A stretch of 64,000 nt of DNA, from NCBI RefSeq assembly GCF_016026235.1, contig NZ_CP065613.1. One strand, 5' to 3'. The translations under genes were made by a program, and so were the position numbers. Under the pieces are notes generated by a model that was not told where the DNA came from, made no database searches, and was given only the letters and a program-made list of their open reading frames with translations. Source of the stretch: Escherichia coli (GTDB lineage Bacteria > Pseudomonadota > Gammaproteobacteria > Enterobacterales > Enterobacteriaceae). Below, piece after piece: positions 1 to 39,712 of the stretch; the stretch's first letter is position 1; every line of letters starts with the position of its first letter.

Positions 1-375
1 CGTTTGATTATTGAAGAATTACTGGAAGATGGCAGCGATCCGGACGCGCTGTACACCATCGAACACCATCTTTCCGCAGACGATCTGGAAACCCTGGAAA
101 AAGCAGCAGTTGAAGCGTTTAAACTTGGTTACGAAGTGACCGATCCAGAAGAGCTGGAAGTTGAAGATGGTGATATCGTGATTTGCTGCGACATCCTCAG
201 CGAGTGCGCGTTGAATGCCGATCTGATCGATGCCCAGGTTGAACAACTGATGACGCTGGCGGAGAAATTTGACGTTGAGTACGACGGTTGGGGCACTTAC
301 TTTGAAGATCCTAACGGCGAAGACGGCGACGATGAAGATTTTGTCGATGAAGACGATGACGGGGTTCGCCACTAA
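1..375 (+). CDS. rraB: RNase E inhibitor RraB, 5'-partial (start lies upstream of window)
   Basis: ORF 4..375 translation matches RraB C-terminal 123 aa including acidic tail [14 protein letters not shown]; frame stays open to position 1. Confidence 0.85.
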
Positions 376-420
376 TTAATTGATTAAAATGCCCGATAGC
401 ACACACTAGCGGGCATTTTT

Positions 421-924
421 TTAGAGTTCGCGTAGCATCCGCACTTCACAATCTACATGGCCCGTGCAGCCAAGTGCATAGTCGATATGTTGAAAACCTA
501 AATGTTCATACAAACCAATCGCTTCTTTCAAAAAAGCGGTCGTTTCCAGATAGCAGCGTTTGAAGCCCATCTCTCGTGCCTGCTCCATCGCCATTAAGGC
601 CAGTTTTTTCGCCAGCCCTTTACCGCGAATAGCCGGAAGAAAATACATCTTCTGCAGTTCGCAAATGTCCGACTCACTCCCGGTTAATGGCGCAATCCCA
701 CCGCCGCCGACCACTTCACCATCGTACTCAACCACCCAATATGCATGACCCGGCTGACTATACACTTGATACAACTCGTCCAGGTTCGGATCGGCGACGG
801 TGTAGCCTTTATCAGCGGTAAGACCGTATTCGGCGGATACCTGACGAATGACGCGGGCGATGGCGGGATTATCCTGCTGCGTCAGGCGACGCATTACAGG
901 TGATTGCGGCGCAATGTTATTCAT
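421..924 (-). CDS. yjgM: GNAT-family N-acetyltransferase YjgM
   Basis: 167-aa ORF with acetyl-CoA binding motif (RGKGLAKKL); conserved position between rraB and yjgN. Confidence 0.85.
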
Positions 925-1116
925 AGTTTAACCCAATAAAAATAAAGTAATTATACATTTGTTTAATACCACTCTCTTCTTACGTGCGCAAGCATCTTAT
1001 AAAGCAATAAAGTTTTTGCCAGCCTATTACTGATAAGAGTATTGTAACGTGGCAGAACATTTTACTGTCTGTATCTATAAATTATATCAATGGATTTTTT
1101 AATTCAGGGGATTTTT

Positions 1117-2313
1117 ATGGCTCAAGTTATTAATGAAATGGATGTTCCGTCCCATTCGTTTGTTTTTCATGGTACAGGTGAGAGATATTTTCTTATTTGT
1201 GTGGTGAATGTGTTGTTAACGATTATAACGCTAGGTATCTATTTACCATGGGCATTAATGAAATGTAAGCGTTATCTCTATGCTAATATGGAAGTTAACG
1301 GACAACGATTTTCTTATGGAATTACCGGTGGGAATGTTTTTTTTAGTTGTCTTGTTTTTGTTTTTTTCTATTTCGCAATCTTAATGACAGTGTCAGCAGA
1401 TATGCCACTTGTTGGCTGTGTTTTGACTTTGTTACTGTTGGTTTTGCTTATATTTATGGCAGCAAAAGGACTGCGTTATCAGGCCTTGATGACCAGTCTC
1501 AACGGCGTAAGATTTAGTTTTAATTGCTCTATGAAAGGGTTCTGGTGGGTAACCTTTTTCTTGCCGATTTTAATGGCCATTGGGATGGGGACTGTTTTCT
1601 TTATCTCGACAAAGATGCTACATGCCAATAGTTCAAGTAGTGTTATTATATCTGTGGTTCTGATGGCAATAGTTGGTATTGTTTCCATTGGTATTTTTAA
1701 TGGTACTTTATATAGTCTGGTAATGGGTTTTCTCTGGAGCAATACCAGTTTCGGTATACATCGTTTCAAGGTGAAATTAGATACTACGTATTGTATAAAA
1801 TATGCCATTCTCGCATTTTTAGCTTTATTACCTTTTCTCGCTGTTGCTGGTTATATTATCTTCGATTAAATATTAAATGCGTATGATAGTTCTGTGTATG
1901 CAAATGATGATATTGAGAATTTACAGCAATTTATGGAAATGCAACGTAAAATGATAATCGCGCAGTTAATCTATTATTTTGGGATTGCTGTTAGCACCAG
2001 TTATTTAACGGTGTCGTTGCGAAATCATTTTATGAGCAACCTGTCACTGAATGATGGGCGTATTCGTTTTCGCTCAACTTTAACATACCACGGTATGCTT
2101 TATCGCATGTGTGCGTTGGTGGTGATATCCGGGATTACGGGCGGTCTGGCTTATCCACTGCTGAAAATATGGATGATTGACTGGCAGGCAAAAAATACGT
2201 ATTTGCTGGGCGATTTGGATGACCTTCCTTTAATCAATAAAGAAGAACAACCAGATAAAGGCTTCTTAGCCAGTATTTCACGGGGAATTATGCCTTCTTT
2301 ACCATTTCTGTAA
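1117..2313 (+). pseudogene. yjgN: inner membrane protein YjgN (DUF898) interrupted by in-frame TAA at 1867..1869
   Basis: ORFs 1090..1869 and 1894..2313 are in the same frame separated only by one TAA codon; combined length from MAQVINEMD matches the ~398-aa YjgN. Confidence 0.6.
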
Positions 2314-2339
2314 GAGATAAAAAAGGCCGGAGCATGCTC

Positions 2340-3634
2340 CTGAGGGATCCCCAGAAAATTTAGTAAACCATTATCATATTGGTATACCGTTGCTGTAGAA
2401 CTTTCAGCCCTGCGTCAAGTGACAGTGTGTTTAGTATGAGTGGAGAATGTCGAATCACATTCTCCGCCAGTTTTAATAACGAGATGACTCGCCTGTGCTT
2501 CACTGTATTTGCCTGATATTTATGATGTATCCCTTTGTTTTCCAGGCTGAAACCGCTTAACCACATAATGATACTGGCTAATGTTGCGATCAGACTCAAT
2601 ACCGTGACCCGCCCAGATGAATGACTGGCACCAAACCGTAGTCCAAATCCCCAGCGAGGATTTTTTTCATCCCTGAAATTTTGCTCAATTTGCATTCTAC
2701 GGCTGTATAATTTCATTACCTGTTTTGGCGAGAACTCAGTACTGTTTGTGAAAATAAACCATGGTGATTTCCCGGCAGTACGAGCTTTAGCCGTCACCGA
2801 TGGTCTGGTTGCTCTTTCCTTCGAGCGTTTAAATCTACGACCTTTAGGCTTACTTTTATAAAGATAAAAATGCCCTTCATGTTGTGCATTTTTATCTCGA
2901 CCCAGCAGGCCTTCACCTAAATAAATTGCTGTCGTTGATGCTTTTGTGCCTGAGTCCGACACCTTTTCCCAGCCATTACCAACATTGTAATAATGATTGC
3001 CCAGTACCCGGCAAATATAGGTCCAGCCACGGGAGCGGAGCTGTTGGAACCATCGCCCCTGAAAACCGGCATCTGTAATAACAATGACATCAGTCCCGGG
3101 GGAAAAGCACTCAGCAAGCGATTCCAGAAAACGCTCATGTACATCTGCATTCGCTGTCTGTGATGATGGAACGACACAACTCATCAACGGTAAAGAACGC
3201 CCGTCACATGCCAGGCTTGCCCGCAAAAGCTGAAAACGAGAGGCATGATAAGCACTCCAGTCAATGAGTATCACAACACGAGACATTCCCCGCGTAATCT
3301 TTTGGGTAATTCGCTGAAAAATGGTGGAAACCTCATTTTGCAAATGTCGATTCCCCAACAGTCGATCCACCCGCTTTATTTTGTTTTTAACTGATGCCGT
3401 ACCGGTTAAATGACGCCCGATACTGGTAAGTGTGAGGGAAGCGCCATTTATTACAGCATTAGTTGCGTCAATCAGTGATTTTTGACGGTAAAGATGCAAA
3501 GGGGCCAGTATGTTGTTAAGGAAATTTTGGCATAATGAACGTGCAGGCATAGTGGTGATCTCCTTGAAATTGTTAGCACAATCAATTAGATCACATCTCA
3601 CTATGCCTGTCTTGTTTTCTGGGGATTCCTCAGG
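2340..3634 (-). mobile_element. IS4-family insertion sequence (IS10-like), copy 1, ~1295 bp, flanked by 9-bp direct repeat AGCATGCTC
   Basis: Imperfect terminal inverted repeats CTGAGGGATCCCCAG / CTGGGGATTCCTCAG; duplicated 9-mer at 2331..2339 and 3635..3643; internal transposase ORF. Confidence 0.85.
2360..3550 (-). CDS. IS4-family (IS10-like) DDE transposase
   Basis: Motifs KRVDRLLGNRHL, DAGF, YSRRMQIEQNFRDEK, HKYQANTVKHR resemble the IS10 transposase; start placed at MPARSLCQ by alignment to the IS10 transposase N-terminus. Confidence 0.8.
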   Translation of the reverse strand: MPARSLCQNFLNNILAPLHLYRQKSLIDATNAVINGASLTLTSIGRHLTGTASVKNKIKRVDRLLGNRHLQNEVSTIFQRITQKITRGMSRVVILIDWSAYHASRFQLLRASLACDGRSLPLMSCVVPSSQTANADVHERFLESLAECFSPGTDVIVITDAGFQGRWFQQLRSRGWTYICRVLGNHYYNVGNGWEKVSDSGTKASTTAIYLGEGLLGRDKNAQHEGHFYLYKSKPKGRRFKRSKERATRPSVTAKARTAGKSPWFIFTNSTEFSPKQVMKLYSRRMQIEQNFRDEKNPRWGFGLRFGASHSSGRVTVLSLIATLASIIMWLSGFSLENKGIHHKYQANTVKHRRVISLLKLAENVIRHSPLILNTLSLDAGLKVLQQRYTNMIMVY

Positions 3635-3672: not shown

Positions 3673-6528
3673 TTACAGCGCGGCGATAACAGCCTGCTGT
3701 TCAATCAGCTTCGCTTTCGCTTCTGCATAGCCTTCCAGCTTCTCACGCTCTTTCGCGATGACCGCTTCCGGTGCGCGGGCGACAAAGCCTTCATTCGCCA
3801 GCTTGTTCTCGATACGGCTGATTTCACCTTCAATCTTCGCCACTTCTTTCGCCAGACGCGCCAGCTCATCTTCTTTGTTGATGAGGCCAGCCATCGGGAT
3901 CAGCAGCTCTGCACCGTCGATGATCTTCGTAACGGAAACCGGACCTTTGTCATCGGCAGGCAGCACGGTGATGCTTTCCAGACGCGCCAGGGTTTGCAGG
4001 AAGCCACGGTTTTCATTTACGCGACGTTCTGCATCCGCGCTGCAACCACGCAGCAGCAGCTCCAGCGGTTTGCCCGGCGCGATGTTCATCTCTGCACGGA
4101 TGTTACGTACCGCAACGATCGCCTGTTTCAGCCACTCGGTGTCGGCCAATGCGGCTTCATCAACCTGAGATGCATCATACTGCGGGAACGGCTGCAGCAT
4201 GATGGTGTCGGCAGTGATACCGCAAAGTACTTTCACACGCTGCCAGATGGTTTCGGTGATGAACGGAATGATCGGATGCGCGAGGCGCAGCAGACCTTCC
4301 AGCACGGTCACCAGCGTATGGCGAGTACCGCGCAGTTCGGCTTCGGTGCCACCGTTCATTACCGGCTTAGTCAGCTCCAGATACCAGTCACAGAACTGGT
4401 TCCAGGTGAACTCATACAGAATGCCTGCGGCGATATCGAAGCGGAAGCTGTCCAGCGCTTCGCGGTACGCTTTGATGGTCTGGTTGAACTCCGCCAGAAT
4501 CCAGCGATCCGCCAGCGACAGCGTCATCTCGCCGCCGTTGAAGCCGCAATCCTGATCTTCGGTGTTCATCAGCACAAAGCGGCTGGCGTTCCACAGCTTG
4601 TTACAGAAGTTACGGTAACCTTCCAGGCGTTTCATATCCCAGTTGATATCGCGACCGGTAGAAGCCAGCGCCGCCAGGGTGAAGCGCAGCGCGTCAGTAC
4701 CGTGCGGTTCAATACCGTTCGGGAACTGCTTCTCGGTGCGCTTACGGATTTTGTCCGCCAGCTGTGGCTGCATCATATTGCCGGTGCGTTTTTCCAGCAG
4801 TTCTGGCAGCGAAATACCGTCAACCATATCCAGTGGATCAATAACGTTACCCTTGGATTTGGACATCTTCTGGCCTTCGTCGTCACGAATCAGGCCGGTC
4901 ATGTAAACAGTGTGGAACGGCACCTGCGGTTTGCCATTTTCATCTTTGATGAAGTGCATGGTCATCATGATCATGCGGGCAATCCAGAAGAAGATGATGT
5001 CGAAACCAGATACCATCACGCTGGTTGGGTGGAACTGACGCAGGGCGTCGGTATTTTCCGGCCAGCCAAGGGTAGAGAAGGTCCACAGCGCAGAAGAGAA
5101 CCAGGTGTCGAGAACGTCTTCGTCCTGACGCAGGACAACATCAGCACCGAGGTTATTTTCTTTACGCACTTCGTCTTCGTTGCGGCCAACATAAACGTTA
5201 CCCGCTTCGTCATACCATGCCGGGATACGGTGACCCCACCACAACTGACGAGAGATACACCAGTCCTGAATATCGCGCATCCAGGAGAAGTACATGTTTT
5301 CGTACTGCTTCGGTACGAACTGAATGTCGCCGTTCTCAACCGCTTCAACTGCCGGTTTCGCCAGGACATCGGCACGCACGTACCACTGGTCGGTCAGCAT
5401 CGGTTCGATGACCACGCCACCACGGTCGCCATAAGGAACGGTCAGGTCATGTGGTTTAATTTCTTCCAGCAGGCCGAGTGCGTCAACCGCAGCAACGACC
5501 GCTTTACGTGCAGCAAAACGCTCCAGTTTCTGGAATTCTGCGGGGATCTCGCTGGAATAAACGTCAGATTCGTTACCTTTGGTATCGAACACCTGGGCAC
5601 TTTCACGGATATCGCCGTCAAAGGTCAGGATGTTGATCATCGGCAGGGCGTGACGTTTACCGACTTCATAGTCGTTAAAGTCGTGCGCCGGGGTGATCTT
5701 CACGCAGCCGGTGCCTTTTTCCATGTCGGCGTGTTCGTCGCCAACGATCGGAATACGACGGTTAACCAGCGGCAGAATGACATATTTGCCAATCAGATCT
5801 TTGTAACGCGGATCTTCCGGGTTAACGGCCACGCCGGTATCGCCCAGCAGGGTTTCCGGACGAGTAGTCGCAACCACCAGATAATCTTTACCATCTGCGG
5901 TTTTCGCGCCGTCAGCCAGCGGATAGCGGATGTGCCACATCGAACCTTTCGATTCGCGGTTTTCCACTTCCAGGTCAGAGATAGCGGTGCGCAGTTTCGG
6001 ATCCCAGTTTACCAGGCGTTTGCCACGGTAAATCAGGTCTTCTTTATACAGACGAACGAAAACTTCTTTCACCGCATTGGACAGGCCTTCGTCCATAGTG
6101 AAGCGTTCACGCTCCCAGTCTACGGAGTTGCCGAGACGGCGCATCTGACGGGTAATGGTGCCGCCAGATTCCGCTTTCCATTCCCAGATTTTGTCGATGA
6201 AAGCTTCGCGGCCGTAGTCGTGACGGGTTTTACCTTCTTCTGCGGCAATCTTGCGCTCAACGACCATCTGGGTAGCGATCCCGGCGTGGTCAGTACCGAC
6301 CTGCCACAGGGTGTTTTTGCCCTGCATGCGCTGATAGCGGATCATGGTATCCATGATGGTTTGCTGGAAGGCGTGACCCATATGCAAACTGCCGGTGACG
6401 TTCGGCGGCGGGATCATGATGCAGAAACTTTCCTGGCTTTCATCGCCATTAGGCTTAAAGTAGCCCTGCTTTTCCCAGTGCTCGTAAAGCGGCTGTTCGA
6501 TATCTTGTGGGTTATATGTCTTTTCCAT
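3673..6528 (-). CDS. valS: valine--tRNA ligase
   Basis: 951-aa ORF with class I aaRS HMGH and KMSKS motifs and C-terminal coiled coil. Confidence 0.97.
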
Positions 6529-19072: not shown

Positions 19073-19157
19073 GCCGAAGTGGCGAAATCGGTAGACGCAG
19101 TTGATTCAAAATCAACCGTAGAAATACGTGCCGGTTCGAGTCCGGCCTTCGGCACCA
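19073..19157 (+). tRNA. leuX: tRNA-Leu (anticodon CAA)
   Basis: 85-nt sequence GCCGAAGTGGCGAAATCGGTAGACGCAGTTGATTCAAAATCAACC...GGCACCA with CAA anticodon loop, long variable arm and 3' CCA. Confidence 0.9.
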
Positions 19158-19320
19158 TTAGTACTTCCAAGAACATCCGAGAAAGTCCAATTATTCCTTA
19201 AAAATCAATGCTTGCAGCGACTTTTACGTCCTGTGTCTTCCGAGGTTGTCCGTTGAAATCCGGATGTTATTGGGGGCATAATTGGGGGCATCTTAACTTC
19301 GATTAGAAATGTGCCCCCAA

Positions 19321-20577
19321 ATGAAGCTTAACGCCAGACAGGTCGAGACCGCAAAGCCAAAAGACAAAACCTACAAAATGGCCGATGGTGGCGGTTTGTA
19401 TCTTGAGGTTTCGGTCAAAGGTTCCAAATACTGGCGCATGAAATACAGACGTCCCTCTGACAAAAAAGAGGATCGCCTCGCTTTTGGTGTTTGGCCTACT
19501 GTGACGCTTGCTCAGGCAAGAGCAAAACGCGATGAAGCTAAAAAGCTTTTAGTACAGGGCATAGACCCAAAAGTCGTACAAAAAGAAGCTCAGGCCGAGA
19601 ATTCGGGGGCATATACTTTTGAAACTATCGCCCGAGAATGGCATGCCAGTAACAAGCGTTGGAGTGAAGACCATCGATCGCGTGTTCTTCGCTATCTTGA
19701 GCTTTATATCTTTCCTCATATTGGTTCGTCCGACATTCGGCAGCTTAAAACCAGCCACCTGTTAACCCCGATTAAAAAAGTTGATGCCAGTGGCAAACAC
19801 GATGTCGCTCAGCGCCTGCAACAGCGCGTCACGGCCATTATGCGTTATGCCGTACAGAACGATTACATCGACTCAAATCCAGCCAGCGATATGGCCGGTG
19901 CGCTATCGACAACCAAAGCGCGACATTACCCTGCTTTACCTTCTAGCCGGTTCCCTGAGTTTCTTGCACGTCTTGCTGCCTATCGCGGCCGCAAAATGAC
20001 GCGTATTGCAGTCGAGTTATCTCTACTTACCTTCGTTCGCTCTAGTGAGATGCGATTTGCCCGATGGGATGAGTTTGATTTTGATAACGCCTGCTGGCGG
20101 ATACCGGCGCGGCGTGAAGAAATCGAAGGTGTGCGTTACTCCTATCGTGGGATGAAGATGAAAGAGGAACATATTGTTCCATTGAGCACTCAGGCTCTAG
20201 CTTTGCTGGATGAGTTGAAGAAGCTTAGTGGAGATAATCCTAGACTGTTTCCCGGTGATCATGATCCCAATAAAGTTATGAGCGAAAACACAGTTAATAA
20301 TGCGCTCAGGACTATGGGCTACGACACACAAACGGAAGTATGTGGGCATGGTTTTAGAACAATGGCGCGTGGTGCTTTGGGGGAGTCGGGGCTTTGGAGT
20401 GATGATGCGATAGAACGTCAGTTAAGCCACTCGGAGCGCAATAATGTTCGTGCAGCTTATATCCATACTTCAGAGCATTTGGACGAACGTCGATTGATGA
20501 TGCAATGGTGGGCGGATTTCCTATCAGCAAATCGTGAGACTTTCGTAACACCATTTGATTTTGCAAAAAAATATTAA
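19321..20577 (+). CDS. intB: P4-type tyrosine integrase
   Basis: Begins MKLNARQVETAKPKDKTYK; C-terminal catalytic region with HGFR...R motifs; lies immediately 3' of a tRNA gene. Confidence 0.9.
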   Translation: MKLNARQVETAKPKDKTYKMADGGGLYLEVSVKGSKYWRMKYRRPSDKKEDRLAFGVWPTVTLAQARAKRDEAKKLLVQGIDPKVVQKEAQAENSGAYTFETIAREWHASNKRWSEDHRSRVLRYLELYIFPHIGSSDIRQLKTSHLLTPIKKVDASGKHDVAQRLQQRVTAIMRYAVQNDYIDSNPASDMAGALSTTKARHYPALPSSRFPEFLARLAAYRGRKMTRIAVELSLLTFVRSSEMRFARWDEFDFDNACWRIPARREEIEGVRYSYRGMKMKEEHIVPLSTQALALLDELKKLSGDNPRLFPGDHDPNKVMSENTVNNALRTMGYDTQTEVCGHGFRTMARGALGESGLWSDDAIERQLSHSERNNVRAAYIHTSEHLDERRLMMQWWADFLSANRETFVTPFDFAKKY

Positions 20578-20668
20578 TAATTGATTTTTTCTGTATGTTT
20601 TTGTTAGGTATTAATCAATTTCAGTTTTACTTTCATCTATAACAGACTTATACACGGAATGATGCGTT

Positions 20669-23409
20669 ATGATTACAAAAGATATAGTTGTTAGTGCATA
20701 TAATTGTCTTAAGTCATATGCTTACTACGAAAACTTAAATTTTTTCCTAAAGGAAGAAATCGCTCAATTTGAAGATTCTCTCTATGACGAAAAAATAGAA
20801 AAAGTGGTTGATTTTTTTGAAAATAATAATGACATTAACTTTAATGAGTGGCTAAATAAAATTGATGTTGAATTATTACCAAAAAAAATTGATAGCCATT
20901 TGGATATTGAGCAAACGAGCGGAGCTCTTTTTTTAAGTAATAATAAGACATCAGATGAATACAAAGTAGGTGCTGTAAATTATTTGATCGTTGCTCCTAT
21001 TGAAATATATTTAATAGAAACACTCTGGTCTATCTTTGTTGGTTCAATGCTAGATGACAAGTTTTCTGATTCGGTTTATGGAAATAGAATATCAAAAGTA
21101 ATAAAAAATATTCTAAGAATAGTTTCGATGCGCCAAAAAACTCCTCAAAAAATATCTTTGAAAGATACATTGATAATTATAATAAATGGCGAGATGGTGG
21201 TATCGATAAAGCGATAGAAGTTATAGAAAAAGAGCGAAATGATGTTGCAATTCTTTCTCTGGATCTTAAGGGTTTTTATTATAATATAGATATAGATTTT
21301 GATGCCATTGATAGAATTATTGACGAAGAACAATTAGAAGAAATTAAAGCTCTTTCTATGTTGTTGAATAGTAAATTGAGGTTGATGCATCAAAAATACA
21401 GAGAGAAAATATCTCCATATATTGGTGTGACACATTCAACTCCTTCATCAAAAGGCATTCCAATTGGATTTACTTCTTCTGCCATATTATCTAATTGGTA
21501 TTTAATGGGTTTTGATAAAGATATTAAATCAAAAATTAACCCATCGTACTACGGTCGCTATGTGGATGATATTCTTTTAGTTTTTTCATCCCCGGACATT
21601 AAAAAAGAAGATAAAGGTGAAGAAGTAATAAAATTCATAGAGCGAACCCTTAATGGATTCATTAAACAGGCAGCGAATGATGAGAAAGGCTTTACGTTGA
21701 CCGAGAGTTATCATGAATTACCAATTCAAAAGGATAAATTGATTTTTCATTATTTCAATAAAGATCATAGTTTGGCTGGTTTACAAGTCTTCAAACAAGA
21801 AATTGAGAACAGAAGCAGTGCATTTCGTTTTTTACCGGAAGAACATATATCTAGCGATCTCGATAAATTTGCTTATGATATATTACTTGATGGTTCGGCA
21901 AATAAATTTAGAAGTATTGTAGGTTTGGCAGAGAATGAAACTGAATTATCAAAATATATATCATCACATATCTTAGCTCATAGGCTTTGCAATCTTCCAT
22001 CGAATGAGAATACCTTAAAGCAAATAACGCTGTTTTTTAAAGGTGAAAATTCTCTAAGGTTCAGTCGGTTATGGGAGAAAGTTCTATCGTATACATTAAT
22101 TACAAGAAAATATGGATTTTCAATCGCCTTTTACAAACAAATTAAAGAATCAATTAATAAAATTAAGTGGAAGGAAGGTGATAGTGTTATATCTCCAAAA
22201 CTTAAAAATGGAATGCAGAAATACATTGATATTTCTCTTTGTTTGAATTTGGCTTTGTTAGATTTAAATGTCATTTTAGGTGATAAAGAGCCACAAAATA
22301 GAGCTTTGGAAGGTTTGAAATCTTTAATTAAACAGTCCGATGGAATGTCTGTTCTAATTGAAAGATTTAGAAGCAGTAATTTGATTCGTCATAATCTAGT
22401 GTCTTGGCCTTTAGCTAACTATACTAAATATAAAGGAGATCTTACTGAGGAGAATTTATACAGTAAGATGCATGGTATTCCACTTGATAATGATAAATTA
22501 AATAAAACCCCTAGATATATTCATGCTGATGAAAAGCAGCTTTTCGATTTGATTGATGCTCTTCATACAAGAAAACTACATAAGTTTACGCATGAAAATA
22601 AGCATCACTTAAAAAATTGCTCTGTTACTAAGATAAAAGATAATAAAGCTCTTGAAATAAAGGTAGGAATTGATGATAGAAGTGGTAATGACACAATAAA
22701 AGTTGCGTTGGCAAATATGAGAGTTGAACGTCGTAATATTGAAAGTGCTTGCAGAAAAGATCAGTCTCCAAATTTAAGTTATGAACGACAAAGAAACCTT
22801 TATCGTATTCTCAACTCGGCAACTGAAGAAAATGTGCAGATATTACTACTCCCTGAGTTATCAATTCCTGTGTCGTGGTTACCTTTTATGGCAGCACATT
22901 CAAGGAGAAAACAAATATCTTTGATTTTCGGATTAGAGCATTGGGTTATTAACGAACGCGCATATAATATTTTGGTTGAAATGCTGCCTTATACTTCAAA
23001 CTTTAAACACAAATCCAGTATGTTAGTTTTTCGAGTGAAAAATCATTACGCACCTAGTGAGATTACGATGCTGAATTCTTTAAGGTTAAAAATATCCTCT
23101 CCTAAACCTAGTAAACAACGGTATCATTTGATTAAGTGGAAAAACGTATCATTTTCTACATACAACTGTTTTGAACTGGCTAATATCGAGCATAGAGCAT
23201 TATTTCGTTCGCAGTTGGATATTTTATTTGCTTGCGTATGGAATCAAGATATAAATTATTATCAACATATCACTGAGTCAGCGACACGGGATTTACATTG
23301 TTATGTGGCTCAATCGAATACTTCGCATTATGGCGGTTCTTGTGTTCTACAACCGACCAGTAGCACTATTTCAAATAAGATATATGTAAAAGGTGGGGAA
23401 AACCACTGA
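20669..23409 (+). pseudogene. reverse transcriptase-nitrilase fusion (DRT1/UG1-like), with a -1 frame change near 21130-21155 and 3' end severed by IS insertion
   Basis: Frame switch between ORF 20669..21217 and the frame carrying RT motif A (AILSLDLKGFYYNID) and motif C (YGRYVDDILLVF); C-terminal nitrilase-superfamily triad motifs LLLPELSIP, FRVKNHYAPSE, STYNCFELAN; stop codon TGA supplied by the IS end. Confidence 0.7.
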
Positions 23410-24700
23410 GGGATCCCCAGAAAATTTAGTAAACCATTATCATATTGGTATACCGTTGCTGTAGAACTTTCAGCCCTGCGTCAAGTGACAGTGTGTTTAG
23501 TATGAGTGGAGAATGTCGAATCACATTCTCCGCCAGTTTTAATAACGAGATGACTCGCCTGTGCTTCACTGTATTTGCCTGATATTTATGATGTATCCCT
23601 TTGTTTTCCAGGCTGAAACCGCTTAACCACATAATGATACTGGCTAATGTTGCGATCAGACTCAATACCGTGACCCGCCCGGATGAATGACTGGCACCAA
23701 ACCGTAGTCCAAATCCCCAGCGAGGATTTTTTTCATCCCTGAAATTTTGCTCAATTTGCATTCTACGGCTGTATAATTTCATTACCTGTTTTGGCGAGAA
23801 CTCAGTACTGTTTGTGAAAATAAACCATGGTGATTTCCCGGCAGTACGAGCTTTAGCCGTCACCGATGGTCTGGTTGCTCTTTCCTTCGAGCGTTTAAAT
23901 CTACGACCTTTAGGCTTACTTTTATAAAGATAAAAATGCCCTTCATGTTGTGCATTTTTATCTCGACCCAGCAGGCCTTCACCTAAATAAATTGCTGTCG
24001 TTGATGCTTTTGTGCCTGAGTCCGACACCTTTTCCCAGCCATTACCAACATTGTAATAATGATTGCCCAGTACCCGGCAAATATAGGTCCAGCCACGGGA
24101 GCGGAGCTGTTGGAACCATCGCCCCTGAAAACCGGCATCTGTAATAACAATGACATCAGTCCCGGGGGAAAAGCACTCAGCAAGCGATTCCAGAAAACGC
24201 TCATGTACATCTGCATTCGCTGTCTGTGATGATGGAACGACACAACTCATCAACGGTAAAGAACGCCCGTCACATGCCAGGCTTGCCCGCAAAAGCTGAA
24301 AACGAGAGGCATGATAAGCACTCCAGTCAATGAGTATCACAACACGAGACATTCCCCGCGTAATCTTTTGGGTAATTCGCTGAAAAATGGTGGAAACCTC
24401 ATTTTGCAAATGTCGATTCCCCAACAGTCGATCCACCCGCTTTATTTTGTTTTTAACTGATGCCGTACCGGTTAAATGACGCCCGATACTGGTAAGTGTG
24501 AGGGAAGCGCCATTTATTACAGCATTAGTTGCGTCAATCAGTGATTTTTGACGGTAAAGATGCAAAGGGGCCAGTATGTTGTTAAGGAAATTTTGGCATA
24601 ATGAACGTGCAGGCATAGTGGTGATCTCCTTGAAATTGTTAGCACAATCAATTAGATCACATCTCACTATGCCTGTCTTGTTTTCTGGGGATTCCTCAGG
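23406..24700 (-). mobile_element. IS4-family insertion sequence (IS10-like), copy 2, flanked by 9-bp direct repeat GGAAAACCA
   Basis: Same element as copy 1 at a constant offset; duplicated 9-mer at 23397..23405 and 24701..24709. Confidence 0.85.
23426..24616 (-). CDS. IS4-family (IS10-like) DDE transposase
   Basis: Identical protein to copy 1; the ORF-track N-terminal extension crosses the IS boundary and is not part of the gene. Confidence 0.8.
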   Translation of the reverse strand: MPARSLCQNFLNNILAPLHLYRQKSLIDATNAVINGASLTLTSIGRHLTGTASVKNKIKRVDRLLGNRHLQNEVSTIFQRITQKITRGMSRVVILIDWSAYHASRFQLLRASLACDGRSLPLMSCVVPSSQTANADVHERFLESLAECFSPGTDVIVITDAGFQGRWFQQLRSRGWTYICRVLGNHYYNVGNGWEKVSDSGTKASTTAIYLGEGLLGRDKNAQHEGHFYLYKSKPKGRRFKRSKERATRPSVTAKARTAGKSPWFIFTNSTEFSPKQVMKLYSRRMQIEQNFRDEKNPRWGFGLRFGASHSSGRVTVLSLIATLASIIMWLSGFSLENKGIHHKYQANTVKHRRVISLLKLAENVIRHSPLILNTLSLDAGLKVLQQRYTNMIMVY

Positions 24701-24709
24701 GGAAAACCA

Positions 24710-24848
24710 TTGCATCCTAACTACTACTTTAAATATATATGCATTGAGAGAGGCTCAATATCGTTCATTCAGAATTAACTCCGATACTATTAAACACAAT
24801 CCTCCAGGGTTTGACTATAATGCTCTATTAGAGCGAGGTGAGAAATGA
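24710..24848 (+). pseudogene. displaced 3' end (last 45 codons) of the RT-nitrilase gene
   Basis: After removing the IS and one duplicated 9-mer the RT frame continues ...GGENH-CILTTTLNIYALREAQYRSF...ERGEK to TGA at 24846..24848. Confidence 0.65.
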
Positions 24849-25534
24849 GTAGCTTTTGGGAAGGTATTTTGTCATCAAGCATTTCATTTGCAATTATTGG
24901 ATTTGTTTGTAAGGCTTTTTTACAACATATTGATAAAAGAGAGTTAGAATCATTTAAAAATAAGTTGAAATATGAAAGTGAACAGAGAATTAAAGAGGAT
25001 GAACGTGCTTATAATTTTAAAAAAGCAAGAGATCTTGAAATCGGACGTTGGGGGTTAACATTACTTAGTGCTGCAAATGGTTTTTTAGGAAGGCTATGTT
25101 ATATTAAAGATCACAATGACCTATCGTCGGATCAATATTATATTGATAGTACAAGATTCTATCTATGCCAATATTTTTGCTGGGTACATCAATTCAGGAA
25201 AAATAGAGATTCATCTGTATTTTCACCAACTAATGATGAAATGTTAATAACTGAATTAATCAAAAATATTTCTATAGCCCTACGAGAGAACGATATTGGT
25301 TTTCCTTGTATTAGATCTCTTGAACAAAAGTATATAGGTGAAAGCCTTAGCATTGGTGCTGAATGTATGTCCTATAAAGATTTTATCGATTCTAAAGTAT
25401 TAGAAAACTATGCACCTCTAAATGATTTTGTTGAAGCAATTCTACAAAATAATAATAAAGATTATATCGATAAACTCGTTATCCCATTCCAAGATCTCAA
25501 GACCAGATTTGATGCGGCATTACAAAATAAATGA
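24845..25534 (+). CDS. hypothetical protein with N-terminal transmembrane helix, translationally coupled to the RT-nitrilase gene
   Basis: 229-aa ORF; ATGA start/stop overlap with the RT tail; hydrophobic segment ILSSSISFAIIGFVCKAFL; AT-rich like the RT gene. Confidence 0.6.
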   Translation: MSSFWEGILSSSISFAIIGFVCKAFLQHIDKRELESFKNKLKYESEQRIKEDERAYNFKKARDLEIGRWGLTLLSAANGFLGRLCYIKDHNDLSSDQYYIDSTRFYLCQYFCWVHQFRKNRDSSVFSPTNDEMLITELIKNISIALRENDIGFPCIRSLEQKYIGESLSIGAECMSYKDFIDSKVLENYAPLNDFVEAILQNNNKDYIDKLVIPFQDLKTRFDAALQNK

Positions 25535-25735
25535 TTTTTTTACCTGCGCGCAATGCTCTCCCCGCCTCGCCCGCCCGCTTTGCGGGGCGGTTTTAATGCA
25601 GTTGCACTGACACGCTCAGACCGCGCCGGGAATGGCGCGGTCTGCAGAAAATGAGGCAGGGAAACGCATGCAAAGCCATGCACCTTATCGATGCATGGCT
25701 TTTTTCAGTAAAAACAGGCGGATTTTCGGGGAATT

Positions 25736-26279
25736 TTACACAGACTGACGTGATGCCAGTTGCGCACTTTTACGCGAAAAAATCATGTTCTGCGCAGGGG
25801 TGAATTTTTCACGGCTGTCATCCACCGAAGCCGCGTCAGGCCTGAATCCGATGGTCGTTAAAATGTCGCTATCCTGTGCGGAATAATTAATTTTTTCACC
25901 CTTCGCAAGCCAGGACAGGAGGGCTTCACGCAGGGCATCTGTGGCACGCTGTATGGCACAGTTTCGGGCAATGGCCGTCAGCTCACTGTAGCCCATCAGC
26001 TCCGGTGCCAGTGCCGCCGCCAGTGCTGTGCCGTGCTGCTGCATAAAATCATTCAGCCGGTCGCGGATGCTGATGTGCTGAACGGCTTCATGCGAACGAA
26101 TATAACGACCGGCGGCCTGATTCACCTGCCATTTTCTGACTTCGATAATATTGCGTAATTCGTCCAGGCGACTGACGTTTCTGCCTTCTCCTGACAGAAG
26201 CCGCAGATATTCCTGTTCGGCCGCAGCCAGCTCATTTTTGCGTTGCAGCCATGCTGCTTTGTTATTCTGACAGGTGTCA
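25736..26279 (-). pseudogene. psu: P4 Psu-like (polarity suppression) protein, 5' end truncated by IS1
   Basis: 180-aa alpha-helical product recognised as P4 Psu-like; the first codons of ORF 25736..26293 are read from IS1 terminal sequence, so the native start is missing. Confidence 0.55.
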
Positions 26280-26334
26280 GGTAATGCTGCCAACTTACTG
26301 ATTTAGTGTATGATGGTGATTTTAAGGTGCTTGC

Positions 26335-38394: not shown

Positions 38395-38417
38395 GAGCAA
38401 CGGCGGGGAGTGATCCC

Positions 38418-39712
38418 CTGAGGGATCCCCAGAAAATTTAGTAAACCATTATCATATTGGTATACCGTTGCTGTAGAACTTTCAGCCCTGCGTCAAGTGA
38501 CAGTGTGTTTAGTATGAGTGGAGAATGTCGAATCACATTCTCCGCCAGTTTTAATAACGAGATGACTCGCCTGTGCTTCACTGTATTTGCCTGATATTTA
38601 TGATGTATCCCTTTGTTTTCCAGGCTGAAACCGCTTAACCACATAATGATACTGGCTAATGTTGCGATCAGACTCAATACCGTGACCCGCCCGGATGAAT
38701 GACTGGCACCAAACCGTAGTCCAAATCCCCAGCGAGGATTTTTTTCATCCCTGAAATTTTGCTCAATTTGCATTCTACGGCTGTATAATTTCATTACCTG
38801 TTTTGGCGAGAACTCAGTACTGTTTGTGAAAATAAACCATGGTGATTTCCCGGCAGTACGAGCTTTAGCCGTCACCGATGGTCTGGTTGCTCTTTCCTTC
38901 GAGCGTTTAAATCTACGACCTTTAGGCTTACTTTTATAAAGATAAAAATGCCCTTCATGTTGTGCATTTTTATCTCGACCCAGCAGGCCTTCACCTAAAT
39001 AAATTGCTGTCGTTGATGCTTTTGTGCCTGAGTCCGACACCTTTTCCCAGCCATTACCAACATTGTAATAATGATTGCCCAGTACCCGGCAAATATAGGT
39101 CCAGCCACGGGAGCGGAGCTGTTGGAACCATCGCCCCTGAAAACCGGCATCTGTAATAACAATGACATCAGTCCCGGGGGAAAAGCACTCAGCAAGCGAT
39201 TCCAGAAAACGCTCATGTACATCTGCATTCGCTGTCTGTGATGATGGAACGACACAACTCATCAACGGTAAAGAACGCCCGTCACATGCCAGGCTTGCCC
39301 GCAAAAGCTGAAAACGAGAGGCATGATAAGCACTCCAGTCAATGAGTATCACAACACGAGACATTCCCCGCGTAATCTTTTGGGTAATTCGCTGAAAAAT
39401 GGTGGAAACCTCATTTTGCAAATGTCGATTCCCCAACAGTCGATCCACCCGCTTTATTTTGTTTTTAACTGATGCCGTACCGGTTAAATGACGCCCGATA
39501 CTGGTAAGTGTGAGGGAAGCGCCATTTATTACAGCATTAGTTGCGTCAATCAGTGATTTTTGACGGTAAAGATGCAAAGGGGCCAGTATATTGTTAAGGA
39601 AATTTTGGCATAATGAACGTGCAGGCATAGTGGTGATCTCCTTGAAATTGTTAGCACAATCAATTAGATCACATCTCACTATGCCTGTCTTGTTTTCTGG
39701 GGATTCCTCAGG
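38418..39712 (-). mobile_element. IS4-family insertion sequence (IS10-like), copy 3, flanked by 9-bp direct repeat AGTGATCCC
   Basis: Same termini as copies 1 and 2; duplicated 9-mer at 38409..38417 and 39713..39721; target lies in GGGGAGTGATCCCC. Confidence 0.85.
38438..39628 (-). CDS. IS4-family (IS10-like) DDE transposase
   Basis: Identical protein to copies 1 and 2. Confidence 0.8.
   Translation of the reverse strand: MPARSLCQNFLNNILAPLHLYRQKSLIDATNAVINGASLTLTSIGRHLTGTASVKNKIKRVDRLLGNRHLQNEVSTIFQRITQKITRGMSRVVILIDWSAYHASRFQLLRASLACDGRSLPLMSCVVPSSQTANADVHERFLESLAECFSPGTDVIVITDAGFQGRWFQQLRSRGWTYICRVLGNHYYNVGNGWEKVSDSGTKASTTAIYLGEGLLGRDKNAQHEGHFYLYKSKPKGRRFKRSKERATRPSVTAKARTAGKSPWFIFTNSTEFSPKQVMKLYSRRMQIEQNFRDEKNPRWGFGLRFGASHSSGRVTVLSLIATLASIIMWLSGFSLENKGIHHKYQANTVKHRRVISLLKLAENVIRHSPLILNTLSLDAGLKVLQQRYTNMIMVY

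Follow-up and report, generated by a model that had tools for sequence, protein, structure and literature searches.

A single inherited nonsense mutation, Q251*, interrupts the inner-membrane protein gene yjgN in an IS-rich Escherichia coli

The reference for the locus considered here is yjgN of Escherichia coli K-12 (b4257, WP_000079634.1), a gene of 1197 nt which belongs to the Pfam family DUF898 (PF05987), has CAA at codon 251 and encodes a full protein of 398 aa. In the titles and abstracts of papers that mention yjgN or DUF898, no functional study of YjgN/DUF898 is apparent, and the mentions of yjgN, where checked, appear in gene lists or concern its use as a marker only. A yjgN::tet allele has been used in lptFG transductions as a neutral linked marker (PMC9544173). 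A search of the PDB found no solved structure related to YjgN. The alleles most similar to the one described below are already annotated as pseudogenes. The yjgN of FDAARGOS_943 (I6H00_RS15745 on NZ_CP065615.1) carries the identical TAA at codon 251, hereafter TAA251, and differs from our sequence at 2 of 1197 positions, with an identical valS. The same stop is found in C7M85_RS18675 of strain 2013C-3342 and C6953_RS06830 of strain 2015C-4498, both annotated as YjgN family pseudogenes with an internal stop; these two CDC strains differ from our sequence at 9 positions of the yjgN haplotype and at 59 of 2856 nt in valS. The window, by which we mean the whole stretch of 64,000 nt from E. coli contig NZ_CP065613.1 that was analysed, shares with K-12 the locus, the gene length of 1197 nt, the Pfam family and 98.1% nucleotide identity, but it has TAA where K-12 has CAA, so that a protein of only 250 aa is possible. 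It also differs from FDAARGOS_943, 2013C-3342 and 2015C-4498 in having an ISEc60-like element between yjgN and valS, which is missing from all three. The features of the interrupted gene are as follows.

1106..1111, + strand: Shine-Dalgarno-like AGGGGA ahead of ATG 1117, with an anti-Shine-Dalgarno (16S 3' end) duplex of -6.5 kcal/mol
1117..2313, + strand: yjgN pseudogene (YjgN/DUF898 inner-membrane protein), 398 codons and the normal stop, broken at codon 251
1117..1869, + strand: residual N-terminal ORF, 250 aa and stop, hydrophobic stretches kept to residue ~253
1867..1869, + strand: premature ochre stop TAA, derived from CAA (Gln251) via C→T at 1867 by codon comparison with K-12 and O8:H8
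1870..2313, + strand: C-terminal remnant, 147 codons, with a mechanical ORF 1894..2313 from GTG that has no ribosome-binding site

The gene is found at the orthologous position, between yjgM and valS and convergent with valS, and the order rraB-yjgM-yjgN-valS-holC-pepA in the window is that of K-12 and other strains. Alignment to orthologues, which had been suggested as a check of the sequence-only reading, is gapless, with 23 substitutions in 1197 nt relative to K-12 and 9 in 1197 relative to the O8:H8 strain, and the yjgN of FDAARGOS_943 is likewise collinear with no gaps. The conceptually joined protein matches DUF898 with 162.6 bits (cut-off 28) over residues 13-369, that is, across the stop, and each fragment alone also matches PF05987. 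The match of the joined frame across the stop, together with the gapless alignment to annotated yjgN, indicates that the pair of ORFs is not a chance juxtaposition. Concerning the start site, the duplex energy before ATG 1117 stands out from a background mean of -2.1 kcal/mol, whereas ATG 1090 has an energy of +0.9 kcal/mol and no Shine-Dalgarno sequence. The true start of yjgN is therefore most likely ATG 1117 rather than ATG 1090, judging from these predicted pairings. The earlier reading had counted the protein from MAQVINEMD, which implied the start at 1117 and agrees with the Shine-Dalgarno sequence at 1106-1111. An uninterrupted frame for a full-length multi-pass membrane protein is absent, the stop falling at codon 251 of 398, and the yjgN of the window is a pseudogene of the DUF898 family and not a functional member.

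The TAA at 1867-1869 can be read directly in the sequence. The window contains the ORFs 1090..1869 (+ strand, 259 aa) and 1894..2313 (+ strand, 139 aa), and as their starts are 804 nt apart (1894-1090, or 3 x 268) the two lie in one frame; the eight codons that separate them (1870-1893, ILNAYDSS) are free of stops. Translation of 1117-2313 gives 399 codons, in which codon 251 is the sole internal stop, plus the terminal stop at 2311-2313. When read through from ATG 1117 the frame has 398 aa, the length of the annotated K-12 YjgN. The claim that the two ORFs share a frame and together amount to about 398 aa is thus exact by translation. Both K-12 MG1655 and the O8:H8 strain 16F5M1D1 encode Gln at codon 251 with CAA, and the lesion is one C→T transition at 1867, Q251*. 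The intact codon is accordingly one substitution away from a stop, as is to be expected of a pseudogene made by a nonsense mutation. An origin from a sense codon such as CAA had been anticipated, and CAA is what K-12, the O8:H8 strain and 3135 complete genomes have at this place. It may be mentioned separately that the nonsense mutation hits the final C of a GATC (Dam) site (window 1865-1868; ttcGATCaaa in intact alleles) and also destroys this site.

The stop is found well beyond the sequence under study. The window is identical at 4869 of 4869 overlapping bases to UGFA01000002.1 of the NCTC assembly GCA_900449985.1. TAA251 is present in the complete RefSeq genomes FDAARGOS_943, 2013C-3342 and 2015C-4498, which come from other laboratories and in which PGAP annotates yjgN as 'pseudo, internal stop', and also in three draft assemblies from other projects (L009, L010 and L011). 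The lesion is thus reproducible in independent sequences, as a pseudogene assignment calls for. Six variants of the 250-aa N-terminal fragment occur on 13, 45, 33, 6, 5 and 3 public contigs, about 105 altogether, and one of them is labelled Shigella boydii. An exact 71-mer around the site is found in its T version in 3 complete E. coli genomes and in its C version in 3135. TAA251 is a rare allele and, since it is already annotated in RefSeq genomes, a known and ordinary null allele. The possibility that orthologues terminate here too, which would have spoken against pseudogenisation, formally holds for the genomes that carry TAA251; but these are a small null-allele minority, and 250 aa is not the normal length of the protein.

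We propose that the C→T change at 1867, by turning Gln251 (CAA) into an ochre TAA, would end translation from ATG 1117 after 250 residues and would leave the downstream ORF of 139 codons as an out-of-use remainder of yjgN. In a hydropathy scan, residues 223-253 form a hydrophobic stretch at whose end Q251 lies. The truncation costs 148 residues, which comprise a variable loop, both of the remaining hydrophobic segments and a conserved C-terminal tail. The contrast between the loop and its surroundings is evident when the K-12-type YjgN is compared with the divergent ABU 83972-type YjgN discussed below: identity is 42% over residues 1-250, 4% over residues 251-275 and 48% over residues 276-398, for 41.5% overall. 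Intact alleles compared with one another give a pN/pS of 0.13-0.16 over the whole gene and of 0.08-0.16 over codons 252-398. These low values and the conservation of residues 276-398 imply that the lost part is constrained wherever yjgN is intact; a pseudogene assignment calls for just this, namely that the removed part be conserved and kept by purifying selection where the gene is whole. The N-terminal ORF 1117..1869 is likely the only part of yjgN that is translated; the GenBank entry STM01658.1, 'inner membrane protein', is exactly its 250-aa product. No Shine-Dalgarno sequence was found upstream of GTG1894, ATG1933 or ATG1939, where the anti-Shine-Dalgarno energies (+0.6, -2.7 and -3.3 kcal/mol) lie within background. 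The most plausible view of ORF 1894..2313 is that of an untranslated remainder of yjgN, and the missing Shine-Dalgarno sequence makes loss of function the best reading of the lesion. The truncated YjgN is presumably non-functional. The stop can have no polar effect on other genes, as no further gene lies between yjgN and the convergent valS.

Loss of yjgN by other lesions is common in the species. The W144* mutation (TGG→TGA), which leaves a 143-aa fragment, is found on at least 1000 contigs, compared with about 105 for the Q251* fragments looked up; among the loci compared it is carried by L007, L012, L013, L015 and L016, the last of which has added a second stop, L253*. IS1 insertions interrupt the gene in L008, H21, H108 and H110, and the yjgN of L014 shows two gap positions when aligned to K-12. 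The W144*, IS1 and small-indel null alleles resemble Q251* in occurring in natural isolates and in leaving an identical C-terminal remnant ORF of 139 aa; they differ from it in being other lesions at other positions, W144* being much commoner. Natural null alleles and the yjgN::tet marker together indicate that the loss of yjgN is tolerated in nature and in the laboratory, and this loss would seem to be neutral or nearly so. As regards gene content, the idea that yjgN is absent from about 15% of strains (some 800 complete genomes without a megablast match) was considered and rejected, as ABU 83972 and Ec-050 carry a divergent yjgN. In both, the yjgM/valS locus holds a 395-aa 'YjgN family protein' (ABU 83972, L017 4193-5380; Ec-050, L018 4197-5384). 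This 395-aa class accounts for about 15% of complete E. coli genomes and has the protein identity to the K-12 type given above; the yjgM that flanks it has about 92-94% DNA identity. The two classes of yjgN would represent either a deep allelic dimorphism or an old gene replacement.

The sequences that carry TAA251 fall into at least four haplotypes. One unites the window with FDAARGOS_943 (L001) and L009, another the two CDC strains 2013C-3342 and 2015C-4498 (L004 and L005), and L010 and L011 each represent a further one. The haplotypes mutually differ at 5-13 of the 1197 positions of yjgN, and in the valS flank they show, in the same order, 0, 56, 17 and 72 differences from the window in 2440 nt (up to 3%). 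The presence of TAA251 on at least four yjgN/valS backgrounds means either that recombination has carried it about or that it originated repeatedly. L011 resembles L010 on the 5' side of the stop and L007 on the 3' side and in valS; it looks like a recombinant, if the pattern of shared bases is a guide, and this pattern fits a single origin of TAA251 that was then spread by recombination. Apart from the stop, the yjgN of the CDC strains has a single difference from L003, the intact O8:H8 allele. It carries L003-type bases upstream of TAA251 at 1716 (151 nt away) as well as downstream of it at 2085 (218 nt away); either TAA251 came in with a gene-conversion tract no longer than 369 bp, or a second, independent mutation must be assumed. 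As a separate observation on one of them, rraB of 2013C-3342 (L004 2143-2544, upstream of yjgM) is annotated 15 nt shorter than in other strains, and there are 15 gap positions in the alignment of this strain to window 1-1116.

Our preferred explanation is that yjgN is a pseudogene through one real, inherited point mutation, which is one of many knock-outs of a dispensable gene, and we hold this to be very probable. TAA251 would then be inherited and would circulate at low frequency, on several haplotypes, in E. coli and Shigella-labelled genomes. The sequence-only reading had left room for a sequencing error, that is, for a TAA that arose in base calling or assembly in a strain whose yjgN is really intact. 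The NCTC assembly that is identical to the window appears to be long-read, which might be thought to favour such an origin. Long-read errors are mostly indels and not substitutions, however, and the identical TAA recurs in three independently sequenced complete genomes of other laboratories and in several drafts on different haplotypes. Identical substitution errors across unrelated projects are not credible, and the error alternative, being highly improbable, can be set aside. The stop could also be read through, whether an ochre suppressor tRNA or programmed recoding were responsible, and full-length YjgN be made. The frame is indeed open from TAA251 to its normal end, but nothing else was found in favour of readthrough. 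Neither selenocysteine nor pyrrolysine is encoded by TAA, which both release factors recognise. The stop stands in the context TAA-A with no notable downstream structure, PGAP treats it as an internal stop, and most E. coli have a plain CAA at this place, so that there is no conserved recoding site; the chance of readthrough is close to nil. More can be said for a split gene that still works, in which the 250-aa N-part and a separately translated C-part (from GTG 1894 or ATG 1933/1939, perhaps by re-initiation) assemble in the membrane. The stop coincides with the first residue of the least conserved loop (251-275), between hydrophobic segments, where a membrane protein might tolerate a split; in-frame start codons follow 25-70 nt after it; both pieces match DUF898 separately; and no stops or indels have been added to the C-terminal remnant in any of the TAA251 carriers examined. 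If such a split gene were real, it could explain the persistence of TAA251 on several backgrounds, of which there are at least four, and on the roughly 105 contigs counted above. Against this stand the background-level energies and missing Shine-Dalgarno sequences at every candidate restart, the great rarity of TAA251 among complete genomes, and changes private to the TAA251 lineages that are all non-synonymous. Clear null alleles (W144* and the IS1 insertions) are moreover far commoner, which shows that simple loss is tolerated and makes a special explanation unneeded. A working split gene is thus quite improbable.

It can further be asked whether Q251* has arisen repeatedly, either because the C of the GATC site is a mutational hotspot or because a YjgN truncated or split at the variable inter-helix loop has been selected several times. 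The occurrence of one mutation on at least four backgrounds could point to something beyond neutral decay, such as a hotspot or selection. To our knowledge, there is no reason for this particular GATC C to be hypermutable. The private changes of the TAA251 lineages (G204 in the window, A126 in FDAARGOS_943, M43 in the two CDC strains) are non-synonymous in 3 of 3 cases, too few to demonstrate relaxed selection and no more than suggestive. Between TAA-bearing haplotypes pN/pS is 0.19-0.37, a range drawn from just 5-8 substitutions that cannot separate relaxed from purifying selection. Recurrence by a hotspot or by selection is regarded as unlikely; were it true, the 250-aa form might be suspected of having a selectable phenotype. 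The main interpretation of the earlier reading, a nonsense mutation that has pseudogenised yjgN, is supported.

Immediately downstream of this pseudogene, the region between yjgN and valS has been altered by the insertion sequence mentioned above, with the following features.

2319..2340, no strand assigned: left half of the bidirectional yjgN/valS intrinsic terminator, an A-run and GGCCGGAGCATGCTCC, separated from the other half by the IS
2339..3634, - strand: ISEc60-like IS4-family IS of 1296 bp, with terminal inverted repeats CCTGAGGGATCCCCAGAAAA / CCTGAGGAATCCCCAGAAAA of ~20 bp
2360..3601, - strand: ISEc60-like transposase ORF, PF01609 DDE_Tnp_1, 73.9 bits
3633..3656, no strand assigned: right half of the split terminator, GGAGCATGCTCCGGCCTTCGTTTT, adjoining the valS 3' end
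3673..6528, - strand: valS

The element is 99.2-99.9% identical to elements annotated as 'IS4-like element ISEc60 family transposase'. It has the attributes of the IS4 family, namely a DDE transposase, inverted repeats, a target-site duplication and an empty site in FDAARGOS_943. The duplication measures 8-12 bp, its exact length being ambiguous because the target is palindromic. The empty site in FDAARGOS_943 (L001 5233-5258) preserves the intact terminator palindrome AAGGCCGGAGCATGCTCCGGCCTT, with T-runs on both strands. The insertion thus sits at the centre of a palindromic bidirectional terminator common to the convergent yjgN and valS, and a terminator search of the window no longer detects it. 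Transcription of valS may now continue into the IS, in the same sense as its transposase gene.

This insertion is not an isolated event in the window, which holds three copies of the element altogether, the two further ones being 99.8-99.9% identical. One of them lies in a genomic island that adjoins a tRNA gene. The features concerned are as follows.

19073-19157: tRNA-Leu(CAA), which the island 19073-26293 adjoins
19309-20577: island ORF annotated in FDAARGOS_943 as a tyrosine integrase
20669-21217 and 21358-23409: defence-associated reverse transcriptase (DRT), PADLOC RT_UG5-nitrilase, broken, its 3' end cut by the IS at 23406-24700
23406-24700: second copy of the IS
24845-25534: RTasTM, the partner gene of the reverse transcriptase, intact
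25736-26293: ORF annotated as a phage polarity suppression gene
38417-39712: third copy of the IS

The chromosome of FDAARGOS_943, the closest relative, has at least 38 places that match this IS, which points to a recent expansion of the element in the lineage. In the 50 kb of FDAARGOS_943 that correspond to the window there are in addition IS600, ISSfl3, IS1, IS2, IS21 and IS630, together with several pseudogenes. Set against this build-up of IS elements and pseudogenes in the genome, the stop in yjgN is a minor event.

In terms of annotation, the two ORFs 1090/1117..1869 and 1894..2313 should be recorded as one yjgN pseudogene; some GenBank records call them two 'inner membrane proteins'. 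Q251* is one more example of gene decay in IS-rich E. coli and matters little beyond annotation. The repeated natural loss of yjgN, a conserved gene, is nevertheless a slight indication that its function can be dispensed with under some conditions.
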